64,000 bases of DNA from a virus, in IMG/VR virus record IMGVR_UViG_3300037245_000888, positions 1 to 64,000 of that record. One strand, given 5' to 3'. This document shows, one piece after another, positions 13,669-56,215 of the stretch; positions within the stretch are counted from its first letter, which is position 1, and each line of letters begins with the position of its first letter. Position numbers and translations under genes: made by a program. The notes under the pieces are model-generated. The model ran no database searches, was not told the origin of the DNA, and saw only the letters and a list, made by a program, of their open reading frames with translations.

Positions 13669-14832
13669 ATGAAAGTAATATGCGTAGAAGATTATTTAAG
13701 CACAAGCAGAATATCAGTTGCTGTAGGAGATATATTGGAATGTGAAGGTGATAAGATTCTTAAAAACGACACTTGGATATGCGATATTAATAGTCCATTT
13801 GGCGAAAGGTACTTTGAAGAATATCACGAAGCGATTAAAAGTAATTACAACAATCAACTAACAAAAGAAGAATCAGATCATGTGGCACATACTTTAAACG
13901 AAAAGGAGAGTAATAAAATGAATGTAATTAAAGCGGTAAAAGAACTAAACATTGATACAAAAATATTAAAGTCAATTGAGCAATATATAGTTGACTCTGA
14001 TACTGTTAGATTAACACCTTCTGGATTAGCTATTGATGGTAAAGTTTTCTCTAGAAAGACTGAACAATTATTGGACGTAAGAGGTACAGAACTACCATTG
14101 GATATTCCTGTTGGATTCTGTATTCCTACTGATGCAAGTAATATTGCGAAAGGTGATATTATATATAATTCTGAAGGTAAAGCTTTCCATGTATTGTATG
14201 TTAATGAGAAGACTTTTGGCACATTTAATAAAAAGAAAACTCCTAAAGAAGTAATCTGTATTTCACCTAATGAAGATAGAAAGATTACAATGATACCCAC
14301 TGTAGATATATTTGGTAATCAAGTTTATAACAAATTGATCACACCATTTAATTTTGATATGGGATGTAATCCTTTATTAAATGTTGCTGCAGTATTAGGA
14401 ACGAGTATTATTAATAAAGATATTAATTCTGCTATTGATACCCTGTTACCACAATCATTAAAGTTGATTAGTAAGATTGATTTAAATGCTATAACTAGTG
14501 ATAAAAGAGTAGTATTCTTAAGTCCATTATTGATATTCTTATATAAAATGAGTAAAGATAAAGAGTTTGACTTGAATAGTGTTAAAGATTATATTTTCAA
14601 TATAGACAAGAAAACAAAGATCTTAATCGTTCTTGCATTAGCAATGGTATTATACATATCAAAAGATAAAATTGCAGAATTGATTATGTCAGACAGATTA
14701 GATAGAATTCCATTGGTAAATAAAGTAAGTAAGCCATTAGGTAGATTGCTGGTTAAGATACCTAGTGTAAAGTTGAGTGTGATTAAAGGATATAGTGATA
14801 GAATTGTTGGTATGTTTAAGAGTGGGGAGTAA
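13669..14832 (+). CDS. hypothetical multi-domain protein with a C-terminal hydrophobic segment; probable second in-frame start at 13918
   Basis: 387-aa ORF; internal AAAGGAG plus ATG in frame. Confidence 0.7.
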   Translation: MKVICVEDYLSTSRISVAVGDILECEGDKILKNDTWICDINSPFGERYFEEYHEAIKSNYNNQLTKEESDHVAHTLNEKESNKMNVIKAVKELNIDTKILKSIEQYIVDSDTVRLTPSGLAIDGKVFSRKTEQLLDVRGTELPLDIPVGFCIPTDASNIAKGDIIYNSEGKAFHVLYVNEKTFGTFNKKKTPKEVICISPNEDRKITMIPTVDIFGNQVYNKLITPFNFDMGCNPLLNVAAVLGTSIINKDINSAIDTLLPQSLKLISKIDLNAITSDKRVVFLSPLLIFLYKMSKDKEFDLNSVKDYIFNIDKKTKILIVLALAMVLYISKDKIAELIMSDRLDRIPLVNKVSKPLGRLLVKIPSVKLSVIKGYSDRIVGMFKSGE

Positions 14833-16474: not shown

Positions 16475-17627
16475 ATTGTCTGGATTATACCACATACAAA
16501 ACTACCATATTTGAATAAATTAATAAGTTATATGGTGATATGCTGCTGATCATATATAAATAGATTGTTTGTTAGATATTATATAATGTTATCGATATAG
16601 ATGTTAAATAAGCTTGTGAGGATAGGCTGTGAGAGGATTTAAATGGAATGTGGATAGATAGTATCAGAATAATATAGAGTGGATTGTATAGGGTTATAGA
16701 GCTGTTTAAATAGGTTAGTTAGTTTAGTAACTAAGTGATATAGTATATAGTCTGAGTTAGATATGTTGGAAATACTGGATTGTTATGGTCTGTGGTATGG
16801 AAATATGATGGAGTGGGTAGAAATGTGGATTTGTTACTTATATTTGGATAATGTGAATATATGTTGGAATGTGTTAGATATAGTGTTAATATGTGTTAAT
16901 GATGTGTGAGTATATGGTAAATAGAAGGTAATAAGGTGTAAATGGAAGGATGTGGGAATAGAGTGGTATATGAATGGAAGGTAGTGATAGTAATTGTTCG
17001 GAGAGTATGTATATGTTAAATATAGTGATTAGGATAGGGTAGAATGATAGTTATTAGGATTATGGTGTAATTGTATAGGATGGGTATAGATATAGTGTGA
17101 GAGGGTAAATTTGAGGTTATGTAGGGTGTGATGGATATTGTAGTAGTGTGTTGGGAATATTCGTGTGATAAAAGTAGATTTGATTGTTTGGATTAATATG
17201 ATTAGTAGGGAATTATTGGAATATTGTATAGTTGAGATAGTATTGTTATATTGTGATCTGGATTGATATGTAGTGATATAGGATATGAAACGCTAAAAAT
17301 TTTAGAAAAAATAATGGAAAGTTGTGTAGGGATGGGAAAGGTGAAAAAGTGTGAGATGTAAAGGTAGGGGTGGGTTGTGGGGTGATATGGATATAGTTGG
17401 ATTGAGTTGAGTAGGATGTAATGTGAATGTAATGGTATTCTGTGGAACAGTTATGGAATAGTCTACTTAGTAAATCTGGGCGAATGTCAAAGGTGGTAAA
17501 TATTGTAAACTACCCCCTATCCCTTGCCATTGGTAGATTCTGGATAATATGGAAAATTATATTATATATTCAATATGACAATTAAGTAATCCCAACGATC
17601 CCAGAAACATCCTAATATATGTCAGCT

Positions 17628-17656
17628 ACTTCACATAATATGGTATTATGTAACTT
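17628..17656. other. dif-like tyrosine recombinase site
   Basis: ACTTCACATAA-tatggta-TTATGTAACTT, compared with B. subtilis dif ACTTCCTAGAA-tatata-TTATGTAAACT; spacer is 7 bp rather than 6. Confidence 0.5.
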
Positions 17657-17903
17657 CAATATTAATCTCATTATGAGACTGATAACAACTGATCCAGCAG
17701 CAATATACCATAAATTACCATATTATCAATTAATAGATAAATCTCCTAATATCTACCATATAATAGATAAATCAACATATTATCCATATTATGCCATATC
17801 CTACCCATATTTTACCATTTTCCATTATTTTACATTAATTGTTAGTTTCGCCCAATATTCGGCATACCTCGTTATACGAGCTTTCTTATAACACTAAGAA
17901 TGT

Positions 17904-18262
17904 ACTTATCAATTGATAACTATAATTTCATCTAACTACCCCACTAACAAATAATCCTATCTAACTATTTAATTAATATTAACCTTATATCATATCTATC
18001 TAACTATATATAAATTATCAAACCAATTAGAATATCATCTAACTGTATCACTATATCACCTATGTTAGACTGCTATCTAACTACCATATTATACTTATCA
18101 TTTGACAACTATATCCAATCACCACCACTATACTAAGTATATACAATGTATATACAATCATCCCATATGATCCCATATGATCCCATCCCATAACATAAAA
18201 CAATACCTATACCAAACTTATGTTACAACTATTATTCATGTTATAGGATCATATAGGATCAA
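17904..18262 (+). repeat. phased short repeats
   Basis: ATCTAACT at 17930, 17959, 17998, 18037, 18075; a 21-mer at 17904 and 18093 (2 mismatches); tandem GTATATACAAT x2, ATCCCATATG x2.7, ATAGGATCA x2. Confidence 0.75.
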
Positions 18263-19616
18263 TCACTCACATATAACACCAATCAACCATATCCTACTAT
18301 ATCGCCTGTATTCCCTCTCTATTCAATTATACATAACATGCTATCAATAACACCAATAACTAAATAACTATCAATATACCTTACACCTATGTTATATCAA
18401 CGCTTATGCATGATATACAATACCTATCTTATTATAGCTACCATATAACAGGATCACTATATTATAATATATACTGTTAACGTCTTATAAACTACCTGTA
18501 ATCCCTTTACAATCTAATCAATACAATAACGCCTTAATAACATAGTAATCACCTTACAACCCTATATAATGCTATACATAACCTAATCCAAGACAATAAA
18601 AAAAAGAATACCATTTCTGATATTCTAATATTAACTTTATTCTATTTATTGAAATACTTTTCTACTATTAATTCACACATACCGAACCCAAATCCTTCAC
18701 CACAAACAATTTTATATTTTTTATTAAAGAAGTCAGACACCTTTTCACTTGAACCATAATTGGTATAATCATTATCTTTTCCATATACAACCCAACTCCA
18801 AGCACCGCCACTTAATTGATGAGTACCAGCGTATGTCCTTTCAATAACAGGGAATAAATCAAGGTTTTCACATTCCTTTAATATCTTAACTAATTTTATA
18901 GCATTTTTTGTTATGCCATACCTTTGATTACAATATCTAAATGCATGATAATTTAATAATATTCTTCTATCCCATTCGCCAGTCAAATAGTTATCTCTAA
19001 CCCATTTTACTAATACTTCATCACTTTTATTAAATGATATTCTTAAATCCCTTAAAAGGTAATCAAGTGCTAAACTAACAGGGTAATTATTATTCATTTT
19101 TAAAGTCTCCTTCTATAATTGTATAGTCTTCTTCATCTTCAATAGTCCACTCTAAATCGCATATATCTCTAATATCAGCCCATTTAGTATGCTTTTCATT
19201 TTCCCATATAACTATAAATTTTTCTGGCATTTCTTGATTAAAGAAGTTTAAAGCAACTTTCATAATTTTATCATTTAAAGCTTTTTTCTTTTGTTCATCT
19301 GTTTTCTTTACTGTTTTAACTTCTATCATAACAACATTATCAGAATCTACATGTTGAAATAAATCTTTATCGTCAATTACTAACCAAGTAGGAATATATA
19401 AATCATTGTCAATCTCTTTAGTCAAACTCATAGCTACATATGAGAAATACTCTTTTTTATTCGAATACAAGATACTGTTATTTTCTCCAACTTTAAAACC
19501 ATATGCTTTATCAGTAGTAATATAACTATTTCTGTTTACTTTATAAAACGCTTTTTTCATGATGAACTCCTTTATAGTTGTTTTGTTTCCTTCTATTAAA
19601 TTACTTGCTTAACGCA

Positions 19617-19645
19617 AGTATAATCCTATATTATTAGTTTGTCAA
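19617..19645 (-). promoter_or_regulatory. sigma-A promoter
   Basis: TTGACA-17-TATACT on the reverse strand. Confidence 0.8.
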
Positions 19646-20801
19646 GTATATAACATTAACTTGCATAATAATTAATATAAACGTATTATATCCAATTTAT
19701 TACATTTATAAGATCATCTATCATATAACTCTATATATCACTTCATAATCAATCTATAACCAACCTAATACAATAACAACCATCATCAGGCAAACCCTCT
19801 CACAACGTAAAAATAGAGCCATACAATATCATTATGATACCATACGACTCTATTTATATTTACCATTTCTCGCATCTACTACCATGTCGAGTATTATAAT
19901 TATTACAATTTATAAAAGTACAAAATAATCTAGTGTCAAACTTTCCCTCAATTCCATCGTCACATATTACAGTTATCTTATCAGGATAAGACGTTAATCT
20001 AATCCATTTATAATTATTACCCTTTGTAAGTCTTTTTTCATTTGATACACATTTTATAAACTTTGTTTTATCTAATGGATGTATCCCTGTTATTGAGAAA
20101 GAACGATTATATTTTTCTAATTCATAGTTTAAATTACCATTACAAATCACATTAGAAACCATCTTATTTCCTCCTAATATTTTTTACATTTTCCAAGTAT
20201 CTCACATAGCATTATTGGTTCAATTTTATTATATCCTAACTTATCAGCACATTCATTCGATACAATCAAACCATCACTATATAAATCAAATGATGATAAG
20301 TCAACACAATCCCAGACATGCTTATTAACTTTATTATATCCTATTATACGTCTACCATTAAACCAAAAGTCATATTTTGAGGTTCTCAATATCATATTTT
20401 TATTTTTAAGTAAATACATCATACAATTAATAGTTCCTTTTAAATTCATAGTTCCCACCTCCTTTCTGATTTACTTTTCTTTTATTTCCATCCATATCAC
20501 CTATACGAGATAATAAACTTTCTTCTTTCATTAGTTCCCATAATTTATTTTTTAATCCTATTTCATTTCTACCACTTACACTAATATTCATTTTAACTTT
20601 TTTATAAAAACATGTCCAAACGTATCCTGTTATTTTACCTTTATATTTTAATACTATTCTTTCTATTTTGTAATTATCTACGCTATATATTAAAATTGAT
20701 TTTCCTAAATATCGGTTATATGCTCCAATATTAATATTATATCTAATATTCATAATTCCCATATCCTTCCAATCGATACCAACTAACTTATATCATCTAT
20801 T

Positions 20802-20830
20802 ATACTATACCTATTATATATAAATGTCAA
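20802..20830 (-). promoter_or_regulatory. sigma-A promoter
   Basis: TTGACA-17-TAGTAT on the reverse strand. Confidence 0.7.
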
Positions 20831-21993
20831 TAACTATTTAAAGAAATACCTTAATCAATACACCACCTAATCAATCCCCTATATTCCCATAACCATTCCA
20901 CTCACTAAAACCCTATACAATCCCACTACAACGCCTTATAATCAATTAACACTATTATCCCTATGTTATCGTATTACCCTATCAATTATAAACCCTTACA
21001 AAGCCATTTAATAAGATATGATTATCAATTTATACATTCAGCAGCCAACCACCTAAATTTTACCATATTGCAGCTAAGCATATAATAGACATATTAATAG
21101 GATCAATCCTAACGTAAAAAAGAACCCTATATAATAATAGAGTTCTTAAGTTTGATTTATAACATTGCTTTAATTTCTTCTCTTAATCTTTCAACAACAC
21201 CAGCCCAATATTTTAAACCGTGAAAATTTACTGACACATTCTCATTTTCTAAAATCGCTAATACTGCATTTTTTGCCTCTTCTAATTCTTCAAATAACTT
21301 ACTCATCTCATACACTCCAATCATATTATAGTTAGTTTCATTTATTTTAATTACTATTTAAGTAATATATCGGTGATCCCCTCAAATGCTTCATGAACAC
21401 CAAAACCATTAAATATTATTGTATTCAATTCTACAAGACTACCATCCCAACTTGATTCATCAAGACCAAACATTTTTCTAATCTCATCACTCATAATAAT
21501 ATCACCACAAGTTAATACTAAACTTAATACTGCACAATCTGTTTTAACACCAAAATGAGTGAATTTCTCATTTACAGGTTTTTCAGTAATGTCCCAACCT
21601 AATTCATCTATTCTATTAATGATTGCGTTCACTGCTAAATTTACCCCAACCTTATCAGACATACCCATATAAGTCGGATGATACAAAACTTGTTCTAATT
21701 CCTTTACGATATTAATATTTTTCATTTTAAATACCTCCTTAGTATTTATAGTTAGTTAACTACTTCACTCACTCATCTAATGTAAAACAATATCATAGTT
21801 ATTTTCTACCTCAATTATAGCTTTAATACTTGCGTGATCCTTCCATTTTAAAGATATATCACTACCTAAATGAAAGCATTCACAAGGTAACATATTTTTA
21901 ATTATATATCTTAAACTTACAACCATATCATGCGACTCGACTTGTTTTACATATATTTTTAATAGATGCTTAAAAGTCATTTTCTTCATCTCC

Positions 21994-22296
21994 TTAATTA
22001 GAATAACATTTTGAAAGTTTAGGTACAAACATATTAATAAAACAAAAGTTTCGTCTATCAATAAATATTTCAATTCCCATTACGTCATGTTTAAAGTCAT
22101 AGCTATCAGCGTTTAATAACTCATATAATTTTAAATTAAACTCACTATGAGCCAGAAGTAAATCCATTGATAAACCTTTTATATCATTATCCAATTTACA
22201 ATCTTTTAAAATTCTTAATGCTATCTTTTTAATCAATTCTAATGTATTGTTATCCACGTTTAAAAAATCATATTTATCTTTAATTTTGTCACTCAT
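21994..22296 (-). CDS. conserved phage/MGE hypothetical protein
   Basis: MDLxxxH...LL.AD..DF.HD..GI...IDR...F.P pattern recalled from a widespread uncharacterised family; GGAGG RBS. Confidence 0.55.
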   Translation of the reverse strand: MSDKIKDKYDFLNVDNNTLELIKKIALRILKDCKLDNDIKGLSMDLLLAHSEFNLKLYELLNADSYDFKHDVMGIEIFIDRRNFCFINMFVPKLSKCYSN

Positions 22297-23223
22297 TGTT
22301 TATACCTCCAATTTTATAGTGTTCAATTATTCTTAATCTCACAACAAACAATAATCACAAATGGTATTAATATAATCAATCCCATAAGTATTATACATTT
22401 CATACTCTATACCTCACAATCCTTTACATTATCAAAATACAGTTTAAAATCCACTATCAAACTATTTACAATATCTAAATCCAGCTTATCAAATAACAAT
22501 TGTCTCCACTCAAAACATATTGTATCGATATCGCCTGTTAATCTATTCTCTAGCATTTCGAGAGGTGTAAATACTTCACTAACGCATAGATGATTAATAT
22601 TATATATATAACAAATATCTTGTATATACTCGTTATCGGGATAATCAATTTTAGCTTGATCCACTAGTTGAATATATAAGTCTTTAAATGTCATGCTAGT
22701 GTCAAATCTCACAATTTTAAAAGGTGCTTTCGTCTCATCATAATCAAACTTGCTAATCTCGAATACTGTTTGATCCATTTTAAAACTCATGTAATCATTT
22801 TTAACTTGTTCAATTGTCTCATGTGAATGTATATTAATTACAATAAAGCTACAATATTTATGATTCTTTTTAGTGTAGAAATTTATACAATAATATTTAC
22901 TCATTTTATATACCTACCTTCATATTTACATAAGTTGTTTAAACTATACCTATTACTATCATTCCAATCGGTAAACATATAATAATACATATGCTTACTT
23001 TTGTGTCTGCTGATAATTTCTTGATCCTATTAACCAATTTATTAATCATCTTATAATACTTTAGTAATATACGTCATACATTCATCATATGAACCACTTT
23101 TCAATAATGCATCTGTATTGCTATATACATAACTTTTACCGTCTTCAGTTAATATTGTAAATCTACTTACTCTAGTTTTAATTTTACTCATTTTATTACC
23201 TACCTTTTTATAGTTTAGTTAGT

Positions 23224-23595
23224 TTAGTTTAATACTTCAGTTTCAATTGCTTCATACTCTATTAATAGAGTGCTTTCTAGATTATCCAATGTTAAACCTT
23301 TTGCAACACTACCAAAGTTTTCAGAACTATAATAACTTACTGCATCAATAGCCTTTTGAGTATCGTTTGACATATCAGTATCACAATAGCTTTTTACATC
23401 ATCCCAATCAATCCAATCGTCAGAGATATCAATATATAAATCAAATAGTAAGTAAGTTTCTGCATCATCATCATAATTAGTTTTAAGAATATAATAACAG
23501 TCTTCTAAAGTATCTTTCTTTACTAAAATTATACCGTGCTCCAAACTAACATCACCAAAATTCTCATATCCGTTTATAACTTTTAAATCTGTCAT
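23224..23595 (-). CDS. acidic small protein (DNA-mimic candidate)
   Basis: AAAGGAG RBS before ATG at 23595; about 29 D/E versus 7 K/R in 123 aa. Confidence 0.65.
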   Translation of the reverse strand: MTDLKVINGYENFGDVSLEHGIILVKKDTLEDCYYILKTNYDDDAETYLLFDLYIDISDDWIDWDDVKSYCDTDMSNDTQKAIDAVSYYSSENFGSVAKGLTLDNLESTLLIEYEAIETEVLN

Positions 23596-23674
23596 TTTGC
23601 ACGCTCCTTTAATCCCTTGAAAACTCACTAAACAATTTTAGTAAGATTATGAAGGAATTAACCTTCATTGTTAA

Positions 23675-24313
23675 TTAATTAATTCTATAAATATAATAAG
23701 TTTCATCATCTACTACTTCGGTATTTTCATTTCCATCATAAGATGCTAATGTATGAGCGATTCCATCAATAGAAATACATTCTTCAATAGCTTCATCCCA
23801 ATCAATCAAGTTGTTATTTTTTGCGATTTCTGATAACTGCTCTTCTCCAAAATTATCTCTATACCATTCTACTGCTCCACCTTGATAATCGCATAAGTAG
23901 TCAAGAAAATCTTCTTCGGTTGTGCAGTTAGCTTCTTCCATTTCTTCAGTCAATCTATTTGTTTCGTTCCCTTCTTCATCTTCACAACAATCTTCTTCTC
24001 TAATATCATTCATATAAAACTCATATGATTCTCTCATAGCATCCTCGAACCATTCTTCATTTAAACAGTTGTTAATAATCCAACTTTGGAAACCTTCTGA
24101 AAATGACTGAAGTCCCATATCATCAATTAAATTATGAATGGATTCTATTGCAAGCTCTTCTGCTTTGTCTTCTGTCACAACTAAATACTCGCATCCTTCA
24201 AACTCGATAACATCATCACTGTAGCCTTCTTCTGGAAAATCAATATCAAGTAAATTTTCTGTGATTGTGTAGCCTTCCATTTTTAATATTACTATCATTT
24301 TCTCATTTAACAT
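23675..24313 (-). CDS. highly acidic protein (anti-restriction/DNA-mimic candidate)
   Basis: About 60 D/E versus 7 K/R over the last 201 aa; C-terminal DG.AH.LASYDG.E...YYIYRIN; start codon uncertain. Confidence 0.7.
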   Translation of the reverse strand: MLNEKMIVILKMEGYTITENLLDIDFPEEGYSDDVIEFEGCEYLVVTEDKAEELAIESIHNLIDDMGLQSFSEGFQSWIINNCLNEEWFEDAMRESYEFYMNDIREEDCCEDEEGNETNRLTEEMEEANCTTEEDFLDYLCDYQGGAVEWYRDNFGEEQLSEIAKNNNLIDWDEAIEECISIDGIAHTLASYDGNENTEVVDDETYYIYRIN

Positions 24314-24417
24314 ACCATACCACCTTTTCAAATCCCTCAAATTTAATCCCATTGATTAAACTCTTATTAGTAAGTATAAACTAATTGGATCAACTGCTTA
24401 TACTTACCGATTAAAGT

Positions 24418-24576
24418 TTAAATGTTATTAATGTAATCATTTAATATTGTTTGTGCGTTTATTCTTCTATGCAGTTGTTGGCATTCTTCAATTGTGATAT
24501 TACCACTTAAAGCATTTTCAGTTGCTTGTAAATATAATTTATGAAGTTGTTCATTATTCATTGTTTTAATAGTCAT
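24418..24576 (-). CDS. 52-aa hypothetical protein immediately downstream of the hammerhead
   Basis: AAAAGGAG RBS; MTIKTMNNEQLHKLYLQATENALSG...; below the ORF-track cutoff. Confidence 0.7.
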   Translation of the reverse strand: MTIKTMNNEQLHKLYLQATENALSGNITIEECQQLHRRINAQTILNDYINNI

Positions 24577-24597
24577 TTGTGTGATCTCCTTTTAGTT

Positions 24598-24655
24598 TGT
24601 CTCATCAGTGAATAAGTAACCAACTTATACAGACGGTTGTTAGACCGTTTCGACA
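24598..24655 (-). ncRNA. type II hammerhead self-cleaving ribozyme
   Basis: RNA reads UGUC-GAAA-CGGU-cuaaca-ACCG-UC/UGUAUAAGU-ugguu-ACUUAUUCA-CUGAUGA-GACA: complete core (CUGAUGA, GAAA, GUC cleavage triplet) with three pairing stems. Confidence 0.9.
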
Positions 24656-24739
24656 TTTTTAATCAATCCAAACATCATTTTTTAAAAAATTTTTATTCCA
24701 TTCTGATAACGCTTTTTTATTTACCATGTTTTCCTCCAG

Positions 24740-25087
24740 TTATCCCACTATGTACATATTGTACGGCATTGGTAAATCATAATTTTCATATGCTTTATTA
24801 TCCAATATTCTAATTACTTCATTTGACCAAGTCCCGTTTGACACTTCATATATAATACCTTTTTCAGTTACTATTGTGTAATCATTAACATTGCAAAATA
24901 TTTTAGTTTTCTTAATTTCTTCTTTTATTGAATCGTTTTGATTCCATGTACAAAACTTACAAGTTTCATGTTTTGGAGTTTCTCCATATTTTTCAAAGTG
25001 TAATAATAACATTTGTAAATAGCCTTTATAATTAATAGAATTATTTTTCTTTAATTCTTCCAATACCTCAACTTTAGTTTTCAGCAT
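24740..25087 (-). CDS. hypothetical protein, first gene of the early operon
   Basis: AAAAGGAG RBS before ATG at 25087. Confidence 0.7.
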   Translation of the reverse strand: MLKTKVEVLEELKKNNSINYKGYLQMLLLHFEKYGETPKHETCKFCTWNQNDSIKEEIKKTKIFCNVNDYTIVTEKGIIYEVSNGTWSNEVIRILDNKAYENYDLPMPYNMYIVG

Positions 25088-25152
25088 TTTATTTTCTCCT
25101 TTTATTCTCAAACAATACTAGACAATTCTAGCACTCTATAGAAAATAAAAAT

Positions 25153-25172
25153 TATTCAGTTTTCAATGTTCT
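25153..25172 (-). promoter_or_regulatory. boxA-like antitermination element
   Basis: AGAACATTGAAAACTGAATA resembles the Firmicute rrn-leader boxA (GTTCTTTGAAAACT-like); preceded by small GC-rich hairpins in a long leader. Confidence 0.6.
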
Positions 25173-25247
25173 GCGTTCGCTTGCATACTTCATGCCCTAA
25201 ACAGTAACATCCTACCTTAAGGCTATCATCACGACAGGCTTGCTCTG

Positions 25248-25276
25248 AGTATAATCAATTAAAGGTACTATGTCAA
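25248..25276 (-). promoter_or_regulatory. sigma-A promoter driving the early operon
   Basis: TTGACA-17-TATACT on the reverse strand. Confidence 0.8.
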
Positions 25277-25312
25277 TTATAAGCTATGCAGTGTTTCCAA
25301 TGGTTTCATGGG

Positions 25313-25828
25313 TTATCCACAGATTGCAGCAATGGGATCAAAAGCAGCTATATCAACGGTTACAAGTGATTTACTAAAATAGTTATCAACAGATTTCATT
25401 ATTTTAAAACAAAAGTTATCCACAGGTAAAATAGATTTTATTGTTTTACTTATATAGAAGAAAGATATCAATTTTTAGACTTTTGAATCCTTGTATAGTA
25501 GGCTATGACTGGTATGCAGCCATTTTAAATTATGGGAATATTTATTGATCTTTAAATTGTTATAAAATAAATGGTAAAATGTGGTAGAATAATTAAGTTT
25601 AATTAATTGTATAAAATCTATTGACAAATAATATATAAATATGGTAGAATGGGCTGACACCCTTTTAAAGTTGTTTGTAATTTTAATGTTATTAACAGTT
25701 GTGGATAACTTTTGTGGATATGTGGATAAAATGTGGATAACTTCTTGAAATTGTGGATAACTCATGATATACTCTATTTAGGGTTAGTTATCCCCAGAAA
25801 CTGGGGATAAAAATAAATCTGTGGATAA
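25313..25828. promoter_or_regulatory. DnaA-box cluster
   Basis: Perfect TTATCCACA at 25313 and 25416 (+) and at 25700, 25721, 25732, 25752, 25820 (-); one-mismatch copies at 25383, 25713, 25788, 25802. Confidence 0.88.
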
Positions 25829-26850
25829 CTTGAAAACTGCATATAATAATTGTAAAATTGACATAATCTCAAAATTGTAATCATTACAGATAAACAGTTT
25901 ATGTCAATCTAATTGTAATGATTACAAATTTATCACGATATCAATATTCACATTATGAGTATAAAATAATAGTTGGATATCCCACTAGATAAACATAAAA
26001 TCATTTTCCATAATATGTTAAACAGAAAAAATTTATCCAAAAATTTACCAAATATTGGTAAAAATCAATTCTGAAAATCCCATATTTACGAACCCAAAAA
26101 TTTCCAAGAACACGTGAAAGTAAATTGCAGCCTCAGACATATCTCTCCCACCGGCCACGCACACCTCACAATATATTTCCTTACCGGTAGCAAATCTTTC
26201 TATCATATAATCTACACAATATATTCTCATCTCACCAACACAACATATCTTAACAATCCACTCTGCTCATCTCCAATCAATCCTCACAATCCCATATCTC
26301 ATCTGTCTCCTATACTATCCCAGAATACCCATCTCACCACATTTGTCCACTATACAATCTATCCACTCAATAAAACTGATCGTCTCCACTGACATCATCT
26401 ATATCACATTTCCAATCTCGTCACATATTCTACCTATTAATAGTGACCAATCATGCACATAACAGAATATATACCTAGATTACATATTTGTTCCATTACA
26501 ACAAAACTAATCACACACTACCCTAAACAACTTACATAACTATCTCACTTGTACTCTCACAACACCGATCAAGCACCGTCATAACAATATATCGATAACA
26601 TGATGCTAATTATCCATTGAACGATAACTGTGTTTATATGCTATGTTATGTGTGTCACATGGGTATGAAAGTTTAATTGAGATTGCTGCAGGAATTATAT
26701 AGAATATTAGTTTATATTGTTTATAGGGTTTTGTTTAAAATTAAAATTAGAAATGAAATAAGAGTTCTCGGTGGGTAGGTAAACGCATATCTGGGTGTGG
26801 AAAGGTGGCATGGGGTATTTTGGATAAACTAAATAAATCAAAACTAATCC

Positions 26851-26879
26851 TTGACATCATATTAAATGTGGTGTAAGAT
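26851..26879 (+). promoter_or_regulatory. sigma-A promoter starting the right-hand + strand region
   Basis: TTGACA-17-TAAGAT. Confidence 0.7.
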
Positions 26880-26922
26880 ATGAAATATAGGAATGTAAGA
26901 TAAACTATAAAGGAGAGAATGA

Positions 26923-27282
26923 ATGAAAACTGAATCAACTAAATTAGATGCAAGAGACAACGAGAAATTATTTCCATATGAAAAGGTTCCATGTAAACAC
27001 TGTCAAGAATACAAAACGTTCGAAGGACATGATGGGTGCTTAGGGACATTGGATGGTATTGCTAACGCTTGTTGCAATCATGGAGGACATGGTGAAGGAG
27101 CATACGTACAATTTTATGATGGAGTTACAATCCATGGAGAAGACGCAATACTTATTCAAGAAATACTAAAACGTAATAGAAGTAATAATTCTAAAATGGA
27201 TAGGTTAGCGTTTCTTGCTGGATCTGTTAAATATATTGCTCAAGAGATTCAGGAAATGGAGAAAATGGAGGAGAATAAATAA
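26923..27282 (+). CDS. Cys/His-rich conserved phage protein
   Basis: CxxC...EGHDGCLG.L....NACC.HG pattern suggests metal binding. Confidence 0.55.
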   Translation: MKTESTKLDARDNEKLFPYEKVPCKHCQEYKTFEGHDGCLGTLDGIANACCNHGGHGEGAYVQFYDGVTIHGEDAILIQEILKRNRSNNSKMDRLAFLAGSVKYIAQEIQEMEKMEENK

Positions 27283-27662
27283 TGTTGTACTATGAAAAAC
27301 ACAAACATGAAATGCCATATGTTCCTTTTTATTTACTTGATGAAGGAATAAGAGATTTAGTTTGCGTATTTAACAGACTAGGATACACAACTATATTTTC
27401 ATGTGAAGGACATGAGGATCACCAGTGTCCAGACATTATATTCAGTATAGCTGTTACTGATGAAGATATCCTAAAGCTGGCAAACAAGATGTTAATGGGA
27501 TCATATAAAGGATGTTTTTACAAGTGGGTCAGAAAGTGTGATGATTCAATACATATTAATTGGATGTGGAAATTGGACTACCAAAATAATGAGTTATCGA
27601 AAAGAGATACTAAACAAGAACTTGAGAATATAGTTAAACTATTGGATGCATTTGTAAAATAA
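27282..27662 (+). CDS. TYW3-like-motif phage protein
   Basis: LDEGIRDLV..FN.LGY.T.FSCEGH resembles the TYW3 N-terminal D..I..L...N....T.SSC.G motif. Confidence 0.45.
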   Translation: MLYYEKHKHEMPYVPFYLLDEGIRDLVCVFNRLGYTTIFSCEGHEDHQCPDIIFSIAVTDEDILKLANKMLMGSYKGCFYKWVRKCDDSIHINWMWKLDYQNNELSKRDTKQELENIVKLLDAFVK

Positions 27663-29308
27663 TATAAAAGGAGAGTAAAATGGGTATTTTAGAAGATTTA
27701 TATGAAAACGCAATTGAGAAAAGAGAGTGTAAAATGTGTAAGCATTGTGGCAATTATGAAGCATGGGAAAATGGATTAGTTTATGAGTCTGACACTTGTG
27801 ATGGGTGTGAGGATAATGGAAAATGGGAAATTGGGACTTTGTCTGAATAGGAGGATTAATAGATGAATAAAAATACTGAATTAACAAATGAAAGACTTGA
27901 GTCATGTATTGACGGAATAAATTATATTAAAAACGATATAAACTCAATAGAAAATATGGTTACAATAACAACCTCTGGAAGTGATAGAAGCAAAATAATA
28001 AATAAGATACATAAAATTTTAGAATCTGTTGTCCAACTTCAGAATGTATTGACATCAATAAACAAGGAGAACCCAAATGAACAATAACAACACATGCACA
28101 TTAAAAGATTGCAGACTAAGAGTTTGCCTAGAAAAGATTCCAGAGGAAGATAGAGATTATTCAGAGGACTATCCATTTAATGCTTATGGTATAGAATGTC
28201 ACGTACCGTGTCATATTAGAGTAAAGGAGAAGAAGTAAAATGTATGATAAATTTATCGTTATAAAAAGAGAAAACTTACACAATTTAAACAATGAAGAAA
28301 GAAAAACTTTAGATTTGCTACTAAATAAGGTTAGTTCAAAAAATGAATATTATATAGTAAATGTAGATGAGCCATATTCTGAACAGGTTAAAGATTTGAT
28401 ATTGGGCAGGAAGTCAAACTATAATAGCCGTGAGATATTCTCATTAGTCGGTGAATGTGGTGCTGGTAAAACTACCCTGTCAGATTCAATGTCTCACTAT
28501 CTATCAATGCCAAGACATCACCCAAATATTGAATGTGCTATGGATAAAGCTATCCTAACAGGATTTGGTTCAGCACGAGATCAAGTATTCATGGATGAGT
28601 TTGTATTTGAACCACAGGTATATGTATATGATGGGGATAAACAGTGGAATGATTTTACAATACAAACTTATACAATGAATGATTGTCATCAAGGAATGTT
28701 TCATGCAAATAACTTTACAGATATAGAAAAAGAAGAAATGAGATCTGTAATTGCATATTATAAGAAATTAAATGAGGAGAAATAGATGAAAATTAAGATA
28801 GTAAAAAATAAAATTATTTTCCTTGGAGGGATAATGTTCACAGATTTTTTCTACTTAAATGAAATTCTTACGCTTATCGAAGAAGATGGAAAATACAGAT
28901 TAACATATGAGGTTAATGATTTGGTTACAAATAAAGTTTGTGATGGGTATTGGTGTGTTCCATTTGAAACCAAAATAGAAGTATTGGAACATCTATCTGA
29001 ATATTGTGAATATGTAGAGATTAAATAAATTAAAAACTTGACAACTAATAAATTATAATGTAGTATTGTAAATAGGAAGAAGCTAAATATTAAAGGAGAT
29101 CAATAATGACATACGATGAAATTTTAAGAGACATAGTGAACAGATTAACAATTGAAACAACAATAACAACTGGTGAAAACACATACAATACCAGCAACAG
29201 GGAAATTATTGTTTCATCAAAACTAAAACTTAAAGGTAAAATAATATCTAGTAGTCAATCTAGCACGAACATAAGTGTTTACTAACTAAAACTAAAAGGA
29301 GATTAATA

Positions 29309-55227: not shown

Positions 55228-55776
55228 ATGGGAATGTATACAGGAATCAGATTTAAGGGAACAGTAAAAGAAGAGTTTAGAAAAGGGTTTGGTATTATTG
55301 CTATTGAAGGAGATTGGGAATTACATTTAGATGATAACTTAAAAGCATTTGGAGATAATGTAGGTAGAAGTGGTTTTATCCCATGTGGATGCTTATCATA
55401 TATGCCTGATAAATGGGAGAAGGATTATATTAATCCAGAAGGCAATAAGGAGCCTGAATTTAGCTCAGATAAAGACAAACCAATTGAAGAAGTTAAATAT
55501 TACAAACAAGTTGACACAGATGGATTTAAAAGAACATATAATGAAGAAACTGGTTATTGGACTTTCCAATGTTCATTAAAGAATTATGAATCTGAGATTG
55601 AAATATTCTTTAAATTATTACCTTATTTTATTGAGTCGATTGATCACTTAGAATATTTCTATGAAGAAGATACATGGTCACAAAAGTATGAATTAGTGAA
55701 TGGAAAGGTTGTTGAGACAAGTGATAAATTTGTACTGTATGGATATGAAGATGAAAATAGTAAGTGGGGTTATTAA
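55228..55776 (+). CDS. conserved phage hypothetical protein
   Basis: GAGGAGG RBS; MGMYT...CSLKNY...YEE pattern. Confidence 0.65.
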   Translation: MGMYTGIRFKGTVKEEFRKGFGIIAIEGDWELHLDDNLKAFGDNVGRSGFIPCGCLSYMPDKWEKDYINPEGNKEPEFSSDKDKPIEEVKYYKQVDTDGFKRTYNEETGYWTFQCSLKNYESEIEIFFKLLPYFIESIDHLEYFYEEDTWSQKYELVNGKVVETSDKFVLYGYEDENSKWGY

Positions 55777-55777
55777 A

Positions 55778-56215
55778 ATGAATTCAAATACAACATTAGA
55801 AGAATTAGATTTATCGGTAAGAGCATATAATTGCTTAAAGAGACACAGAATTAATACACTTGGACAATTAGAGAAATTAACTCATGAAGATTTATTGAAA
55901 GTTAGAAATATGAATATGAAATGTGTTTTTGAAGTTGAGAAGAAATTAGGTAGAGTTGATGAAATAGTTGAACATTCTCCATTAGAATTTAAACCTAATG
56001 AAATAGTATTCGATAGAAAAAGAGGCTGGTACGGTATTTACTTAAGTAAAGTAGATTCAGAATGCTCAGAGGTTCAATTTGAAGATGGATTAACTATCGT
56101 CCGAACTAAATGGCTAACACATGTTAATCAAGTTGCAGTGTTAAAAATTATTAGAGAATATAATGAATTACAGCAAAGAGGTGTGATTGACTTAGGAAAT
56201 GAATTTGAATATTAA
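55778..56215 (+). CDS. RNA polymerase alpha C-terminal-domain-like protein fused to a small beta-barrel domain
   Basis: TLEELDLSVRAYNCLKRHRINTL..L...DLLKVRN closely matches the RpoA CTD. Confidence 0.85.
   Translation: MNSNTTLEELDLSVRAYNCLKRHRINTLGQLEKLTHEDLLKVRNMNMKCVFEVEKKLGRVDEIVEHSPLEFKPNEIVFDRKRGWYGIYLSKVDSECSEVQFEDGLTIVRTKWLTHVNQVAVLKIIREYNELQQRGVIDLGNEFEY

Follow-up and report, generated by a model that had tools for sequence, protein, structure and literature searches.

A two-part DnaA-box array around the least stable duplex of a large phage genome: a candidate host-DnaA-dependent origin whose layout recurs in the Lactococcus 949 group

The stretch of DNA analyzed here (hereafter, the window) comprises positions 1 to 64,000 of IMGVR_UViG_3300037245_000888, an IMG/VR virus record of 111,832 bp (genome GC 29%), and at positions 25313-25828, in a gene-free gap between two divergent operons, it carries a dense array of DnaA boxes. 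In our judgment there is an even chance that this array is a DnaA-assembly region that serves the phage as a host-DnaA-dependent origin of replication, possibly one that is activated by transcription. We favor an origin because of the number, quality, phasing and mirror geometry of the boxes, and because the weakest duplex of the genome lies between their two clusters. We also favor it because we detected no gene for an initiator or a helicase loader, because the array is positioned at the head of the replication operon and because the same layout recurs in a distant cultivated lineage, the 949 group of Lactococcus phages.

A preliminary description of this DNA had counted seven perfect and four one-mismatch boxes within 25313-25828, had placed the left boxes on the + strand and the right boxes mostly on the - strand, and had pointed out a perfect inverted pair of boxes near the right end. 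A sequence scan bore out each of these points and gave the following features.

25313 and 25416, + strand: perfect boxes, TTATCCACA
25383, + strand: one-mismatch box, TTATCAACA
25689, + strand: two-mismatch box, TTATTAACA, head-to-head with box 25700
25700, 25721, 25732, 25752 and 25820, - strand: perfect boxes, TTATCCACA
25713, - strand: one-mismatch box, ATATCCACA
25788 (+ strand) and 25802 (- strand): one-mismatch boxes, TTATCCCCA
25788-25810: perfect palindrome with 10-bp arms, formed by two head-to-head one-mismatch boxes (TTATCCCCAG-AAA-CTGGGGATAA)
25313-25424, + strand: left cluster of three boxes, all in the TTATCCACA sense on the + strand and directed towards an AT-rich core
25689-25828, - strand: right cluster of eight boxes, mostly reading TGTGGATAA on the + strand, with the two-mismatch box 25689 (+ strand) at its edge

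Seven of the eight perfect copies of TTATCCACA in the 111.8-kb genome are confined to these 516 bp, in which a first-order Markov model predicts 0.008 copies (1.75 for the entire genome; corrected P ~2e-16), and a tetranucleotide microsatellite aside, TTATCCACA is the most clustered 9-mer that the genome possesses. The boxes are also of high quality, as 8 of the 11 have the extended GTTATCCACA form, and GTTATCCACA(G) is the form of the high-affinity boxes R1 and R4 in the oriC of Escherichia coli. An oriC-type region is expected to have at least three clustered consensus DnaA boxes and an AT-rich segment beside them, and both are found here.

The arrangement of the boxes is as striking as their number. 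The two clusters are 275 bp apart and point towards each other across the AT-rich core, each of them with the orientation that box R1 of E. coli oriC has towards its unwinding element. Nested perfect inverted repeats, one pairing 25312-25325 with 25816-25829 and the other 25409-25424 with 25700-25715, share an axis at ~25565. Within the right cluster, perfect boxes 25700, 25721, 25732 and 25752 fall on one helical face because they are spaced by 21, 11 and 20 bp. The palindrome at 25788-25810, if made single-stranded, would form a hairpin that presents a duplex DnaA box.

The array lies within a gap whose ends coincide with a reversal of gene orientation, also as described previously, since genes are on the - strand up to 25111 and on the + strand from 26923. 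The ORFs (open reading frames) in the gap were considered as genes and rejected, having codon scores of -0.19, -0.55 and -0.38 per codon versus a mean of +0.30 for the small genes, and a search of 24000-28000 against Rfam returned no family at E <= 1. The gap and its surroundings have the following features.

18642-25111, - strand: leftward operon of small genes
25112-26922: gene-free gap of 1.8 kb that separates the two operons, from ORF maps and codon scores
25248-25276, - strand: host-type promoter TTGACA-17-TATACT for the small-gene operon (11/12 positions)
25430-25688: AT-rich core of 260 bp between the two box clusters, a candidate unwinding element
25582-25590: a second TGGTAGAAT, within the core
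25621-25650, + strand: promoter TTGACA-18-TAGAAT with a TG extension, within the core (11/12 positions)
25876-25888 and 25914-25926: two 13-bp palindromes, TGTAAT(C/G)ATTACA, 38 bp apart, the motif being found nowhere else in the genome
26050-26600: G-poor tract, with 36 G in 551 nt on the + strand and a skew down to -0.94
26851-26879, + strand: second rightward promoter, TTGACA-17-TAAGAT, just before a ribosome-binding site and the first rightward gene (26923)
From 26923, + strand: rightward operon with the replication genes

The core is exceptional for the entire genome. In a nearest-neighbor scan of ~111,700 windows of 100 bp, the segment 25542-25641 ranked first as the least stable duplex, and GC content falls to 16% in 25550-25649. 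The promoter at 25621-25650, which had been reported as pointing into the array with no ORF downstream, is real in both respects: it is followed by neither an ORF nor a ribosome-binding site for ~1.2 kb, and the ORFs of the gap are those that score as non-coding. Sites of the form TTGACA-N16-18-TAnnnT number 22 in the genome, and three strong host-type promoters are in the gap. Downstream of the array, the two TGTAAT(C/G)ATTACA palindromes overlap promoter-like hexamers and look like operators of a dimeric regulator. Farther on, between the array and the first rightward gene, the G-poor tract is most extreme in 26150-26560 (21 G in 411 nt). A rightward transcript of 26050-26600 would be C-rich and G-poor and could resemble the loading sites of Rho, and because of this composition the untranslated RNA may stop short of the next promoter; read leftward, the tract would yield a G-rich RNA that tends to form R-loops.

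With promoters this close to the boxes, might DnaA act here as a transcription factor rather than as an initiator? The preliminary description left out this serious rival, in which host DnaA would act on the divergent early promoters, perhaps by looping the two clusters together, and the array would have no origin function; early gene expression would then track the replication and growth state of the host. Several features fit such a switch. Box 25313 is situated 36 bp upstream of the -35 hexamer of the leftward promoter, the right cluster begins ~40 bp downstream of the 25621-25650 promoter start, box 25752 is within the spacer of another promoter-like site (25745-25773), and the gap as a whole is enriched in promoter-like sites, with 27 observed versus 16.2 +/- 4.3 expected. 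The 275 bp between the facing clusters would be a suitable span for a repression loop, the 949-group phages have a TAGAAT promoter-like element at most ~60 bp past their tandem boxes, and DnaA regulates many bacterial promoters as well as pR and pO of lambda. However, eleven phased boxes around the weakest duplex of a genome exceed the needs of known DnaA-regulated promoters, the main rightward promoter has no gene to drive, and a switch leaves the lack of a phage initiator unexplained. We therefore regard a switch alone as unlikely, while noting that a switch and an origin are compatible, for the oriC regions of Firmicutes likewise contain the dnaA promoter.

The lack of an initiator stands beside an otherwise ample set of replication genes. 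The phage was said to have its own replisome, and we found a DnaB-like helicase, a primase, a DnaE-type polymerase, an NAD-dependent ligase, an OB-fold protein and an AAA_24 protein, together with an exonuclease, a RecD-like helicase, another helicase and a tyrosine recombinase; nucleotide metabolism is represented by an anaerobic ribonucleotide reductase and a dUTPase. The claim that the window has no dnaA gene can be extended to the whole genome, as six-frame searches of it, in which control profiles matched, detected neither DnaA (PF00308) nor DnaA domain IV (PF08299), and likewise neither DnaD/DnaB_2 (PF07261) nor DnaC/IstB (PF01695). Similarly, scans of ~90 proteins against Pfam and PHROG returned no initiator or loader.

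How might a phage with these proteins use the array? We propose, from sequence features, that host DnaA would fill the high-affinity boxes on either side of the 260-bp core, with both clusters facing it in the manner of R1. The DnaA oligomers, negative supercoiling and transcription from the core promoter would together open the least stable duplex of the genome, after which the DnaB-like helicase and primase of the phage (or, at first, those of the host) would be loaded and the DnaE-type polymerase of the phage would take over. The rightward untranslated transcript would cross the right cluster and probably stop in the G-poor tract. DnaA binding, unwinding, helicase loading and any role of the transcript are thus steps that we infer from the boxes, the unstable core and the promoters.

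Several observations weigh against an origin at this location. Many of the small genes have no annotation and might include an initiator that was not recognized. The unwinding region of an origin might be expected to have DnaA-trios, for which the strict rule is at least three 3'-[G/A]A[T/A]-5' triplets within 16 bp of a box (PMC8287927, PMC7561715), and no strict run is present beside the core-proximal boxes, so that an earlier statement that there was no clear DnaA-trio run holds under the strict motif. The sole strict run of three triplets adjoins box 25820 and is directed into the array, while under the loose rule six consecutive NAN triplets follow box 25416 at a distance of 12 bp, a run length that is equaled at 2.9% of random positions. 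In phage T5, DnaA boxes are located away from the mapped origins. GC skew was rejected as an origin signal, as it tracks gene orientation, and it lends no independent support. There are also competing sites within the genome itself. A perfect 22-bp tandem repeat (2.9 copies) followed by AT-rich 14-mer repeats at genome positions 111050-111191 contains a 40-bp window that is among the least stable in the genome and is an iteron-like candidate for an origin, or else for a packaging site; the genes beside the 22-bp repeat had no domain matches. Additionally, an array of ATCTAACT(A) at 17930-18083 lies in the second least stable 100-bp window (17957-18056). Lastly, nine other relatives in the supergroup of SPbeta-like and 949-like phages are without an array, and therefore the array is not general to the replication mechanism of that group.

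The preliminary description had offered three readings without choosing among them: a host-DnaA-dependent origin, a sponge for DnaA and an injection-stop signal. The anatomy set out above favors the first of these; the second leaves the phasing, the unstable core, the promoters and the conserved position without an explanation. As a sink comparable to datA, the array would titrate or inactivate host DnaA so that host initiation stops while the phage replicates by other means. That the phage has its own replisome, and that many high-affinity boxes would multiply with genome copy number, would suit this idea, and clusters of boxes that titrate DnaA are known, namely datA of E. coli and those of Bacillus subtilis. 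Yet a single incoming copy with eleven boxes would be unable to titrate the DnaA of a cell early in infection, and the unstable core, the promoters inside it, the mirror geometry and the fixed place at the head of the replication operon, the layout of which is conserved in the 949 group, would be superfluous for a sink. We know of no datA-type catalytic inactivation in Firmicutes. We consider a sink quite improbable.

What kind of phage carries this candidate origin? The ends of its record overlap by 127 bp, which makes this a circular assembly whose start is arbitrary, and only one public run, a marine-sediment metagenome that is probably the source, contains the sequence (contig data, depth flat at 20.6). 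Portal and polymerase comparisons link the phage, at 25-45% amino-acid identity, to large Firmicutes siphoviruses as distant relatives, among which are SPbeta-like phages, Bacillus PBC2-like phages, Brevibacillus phage Sundance, Clostridioides phage pCD1602_4 and 22 Lactococcus records. Searches of IMG/VR with single proteins, namely the product of the first rightward gene and the polymerase, found no close relative. A profile of the family of a 119-aa protein matched 236 loci, of which none was syntenic and none had boxes close by, and a portal search of genome contigs gave no match.

Three other features of this genome deserve mention. A 171-aa protein (55700-56215, + strand) carries, as a free-standing copy, the C-terminal domain of the alpha subunit of bacterial RNA polymerase (PF03118, E = 1e-19), with which UP elements and activators are contacted. 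An 873-aa protein (genome positions 106830-109451, - strand) has PHROG 8308 as its sole match (E = 2e-146), a family with no function assigned there; its size and the SPbeta-like kinship of the phage suggest a YonO-like single-subunit RNA polymerase. A (GATT)n microsatellite of ~10 copies at genome positions 65645-65685, within or at the edge of a 130-aa ORF (65314-65706, - strand), is possibly prone to slippage.

The most informative comparison came from cultivated phages. A BLAST search of the right cluster against these matched the whole 949 group (Audreyjarvisvirus: 949, WRP3, AM1-AM12, LW81 and P1048), and one IMG/VR record with an array, of 130,008 bp, proved to be Lactococcus phage WRP3, being identical to KM677185 over 24 kb. 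We compared the gene map of this genome with those of WRP3, 949, AM1, P1048 and AM4. The order of blocks is the same in both lineages: a + strand block, a convergent gene-free gap, a leftward small-gene block of ~6 kb, a gap and a rightward operon. In both it is the gene-free gap before the rightward operon that houses the array (1.7-2.5 kb in the 949 group). The 949-group operon begins with genes for a nucleotidase and a cell-wall hydrolase, followed by an SSB-like protein, helicase, primase and exonuclease. The order of the SSB-like, helicase and primase genes agrees between this genome and the 949 group, with the helicase and primase sharing only ~25% amino-acid identity.

The likeness extends to the arrays themselves. 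Those of the 949 group also have seven perfect boxes in two clusters (~240-250 bp apart, versus 275 bp here), tandem boxes in phase (spacings of 20, 21 and 22 bp, versus 21, 11 and 20 bp) and a head-to-head palindromic pair, which in their case consists of perfect boxes with a 3-nt loop, TTATCCACA-N3-TGTGGATAA. From end to end, a 949-group array consists of the palindromic pair plus one box, a spacer of ~240 bp, four tandem boxes and an AT-rich, promoter-like segment. In 949 and P1048 this segment, directly after the four tandem boxes, has the lowest stability of any 100 bp in the 5-kb locus, and among five 949-group phages 61 of the 63 box columns are invariant versus 249 of 312 in the spacers (P = 4e-4).

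The two lineages also differ. The unstable core is outside the four tandem boxes in the 949 group, whereas it is between the clusters here. Their array is followed by ~430 bp of ~48-bp repeats, where this genome has two operator-like palindromes and the G-poor tract. These repeats, which are imperfect, have a palindromic TTTCAAAAATTTGAAA-like core and occupy the region between the boxes and the first rightward gene (WRP3 23500-23990; also in 949). Common descent of the arrays would call for similarity beyond the boxes, and by BLAST the nucleotide similarity is confined to the box runs, with none past them, so it may be that this phage and the 949 group gained their arrays independently. The convergent gap on the opposite side of the leftward block (16649-17788) has four one-mismatch boxes (uncorrected P 0.001, not significant when corrected), and the equivalent convergent gap of WRP3 has a perfect tandem pair (record positions 14578-14598). 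The small-gene block may thus be flanked by DnaA sites on both sides in both lineages. The 949-group literature that we searched, to which the 2010 genome paper on phage 949 did not belong, makes no mention of DnaA boxes or an origin.

Taking the two lineages together, one might go further and propose that they represent a class of large virulent Firmicutes siphoviruses with a replisome and no initiator that mimic the chromosomal origin. Host DnaA would dock on the two-part array, an untranslated transcript would aid the opening of the weakest duplex, and the palindromic box pairs would form hairpins on the displaced strand at which DnaA loads the phage helicase. The model for this is the ABC primosome, in which helicase loading on single-stranded DNA can take place at a hairpin that contains a duplex DnaA box. 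We put this forward tentatively, as a proposal that is possible and more doubtful than that of an origin in this phage.

Box arrays are not restricted to these phages. At least 120 IMG/VR loci have three tandem perfect boxes, and in 57 of 120 sampled loci there were at least six boxes in 600 bp. The IMG/VR arrays are located in large gaps (median 401 versus 34 bp) and are more frequent at divergent junctions (30% versus 14%, P = 0.0025). Other cultivated phages with arrays include phiCD6356, a small Clostridioides phage with a ParA-like gene, as well as Butyrivibrio phages and T4-like vibriophages. Among the gokushoviruses, small single-stranded DNA phages of the Microviridae, many (MK496754, MG945739, KT264787 and others) have DnaA-box runs with matches to the right cluster. 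The palindrome TTATCCCCAG-N3-CTGGGGATAA was found in 64 metagenome contigs with GC contents of 34-70%, including bacterial contigs of up to 965 kb. None of the 64 is related to the phage, and Pfam searches of five of the loci found no dnaA nearby. In metagenome contigs this palindrome recurs near TenA/PqqC-like genes, and in three of these contigs 26-27 boxes lie no more than 500 bp from it in either direction.

How replication starts in large virulent phages that have a helicase, primase and polymerase and lack an initiator is mostly obscure, especially for those of Gram-positive hosts. What is new here is a Firmicute lineage with a box array plus a cultivated proxy for it, the 949 group, and that link turns a metagenomic oddity into something testable, as Lactococcus lactis and its phages are available and a plasmid assay for c2-type origins is established. 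If host DnaA is the initiator, replication of the phage would be tied to the initiation state of its host, which bears on the control of dairy phages and on how phages and hosts interact in sediment communities that grow slowly. Mimicry of a chromosomal origin, if true, would make the phage hostage to the DnaA state of its host, so that lytic replication would keep step with host growth and hosts could gain resistance by simple means. Should the array instead turn out to act as a switch or a sink, it would represent a new means by which a phage reads or disables the cell cycle of its host.

DnaA boxes on mobile replicons are already known, from P1, plasmids, lambda and T5, and two published reports of a "phage oriC" give software predictions only. 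An oriC-like two-part array in large Firmicutes siphoviruses without an initiator is undescribed in the literature that we searched. One system that this locus resembles in layout is that of T5, where the first-step-transfer region, which is untranslated, has eight DnaA boxes, inverted repeats and palindromes (bioRxiv 10.1101/866236). By analogy, the small-gene block of our phage would enter the cell first and the DNA would pause at membrane-bound DnaA, or DnaA would tether the genome to the membrane. In both genomes, small early genes are followed by a lengthy untranslated stretch that contains inverted repeats and palindromes as well as some eight boxes, and T5 also shares the variant boxes TTATCAACA, TTATCCCCA and TTATTAACA. 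Moreover, the ~8.5 kb from a compositional flip at ~17.5 kb to the array is ~7.6% of the genome, and the T5 fragment is 7.9%. However, a stop of the T5 type would be expected in a long terminal repeat, ~8% from the first-injected end, and the circular assembly with its 127-bp overlap, like the contig data, shows no genome ends. Five genes of the leftward block have no significant Pfam match, and the portal and the polymerase place the phage among SPbeta-like, 949-like and Bacillus siphoviruses of Firmicutes rather than among T5-like phages. The boxes of T5 also differ in being paired at 3 bp within large repeats, far from its mapped origins. For T5 itself, a role of DnaA in stopping injection is a preprint hypothesis only and unproven (Davison, bioRxiv 10.1101/866236). 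There is, in our view, only a slim chance that the array is an injection stop or a membrane anchor, and it also provides an independent comparison for the T5 idea.

As for origins proper, an architectural precedent is that of the lactococcal phage c2 (Ceduovirus), which replicates plasmids without phage proteins, so that host proteins suffice (PMC7150918, NC_001706). It is also non-coding and located between divergent modules, with two tandem early promoters and no ORF or ribosome-binding site between, but it has no DnaA box at up to two mismatches except for two weak ones. The origin of lambda offers a precedent for the coupling of nearby transcription to DnaA. Similarly, in the iteron replicons with auxiliary DnaA boxes (P1 oriR, F, RK2 and pSC101), which are mobile, boxes for host DnaA border an AT-rich origin, a parallel to this locus. 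The gap has no other direct repeat of at least three copies, and its flanking genes have no Rep-like domain, which sets it apart from an iteron origin.

The array also resembles bacterial oriC in its parts, especially the bipartite oriC of Firmicutes, whose basal unwinding system consists of DnaA boxes and DnaA-trios (PMC8287927, PMC7561715). We rejected the notion that it is a captured host oriC, as we found neither dnaA nor dnaN close by, and nucleotide similarity only at the boxes. The array further differs from an oriC of this type in having neither a strict DnaA-trio nor a GC cluster beside a box, and in clusters that are mirror-symmetric and 275 bp apart rather than parted by a gene. Nevertheless, it shares with the Firmicute oriC its clusters of consensus boxes, two sub-regions that DnaA could bridge, an adjacent AT-rich unwinding element and an embedded promoter.

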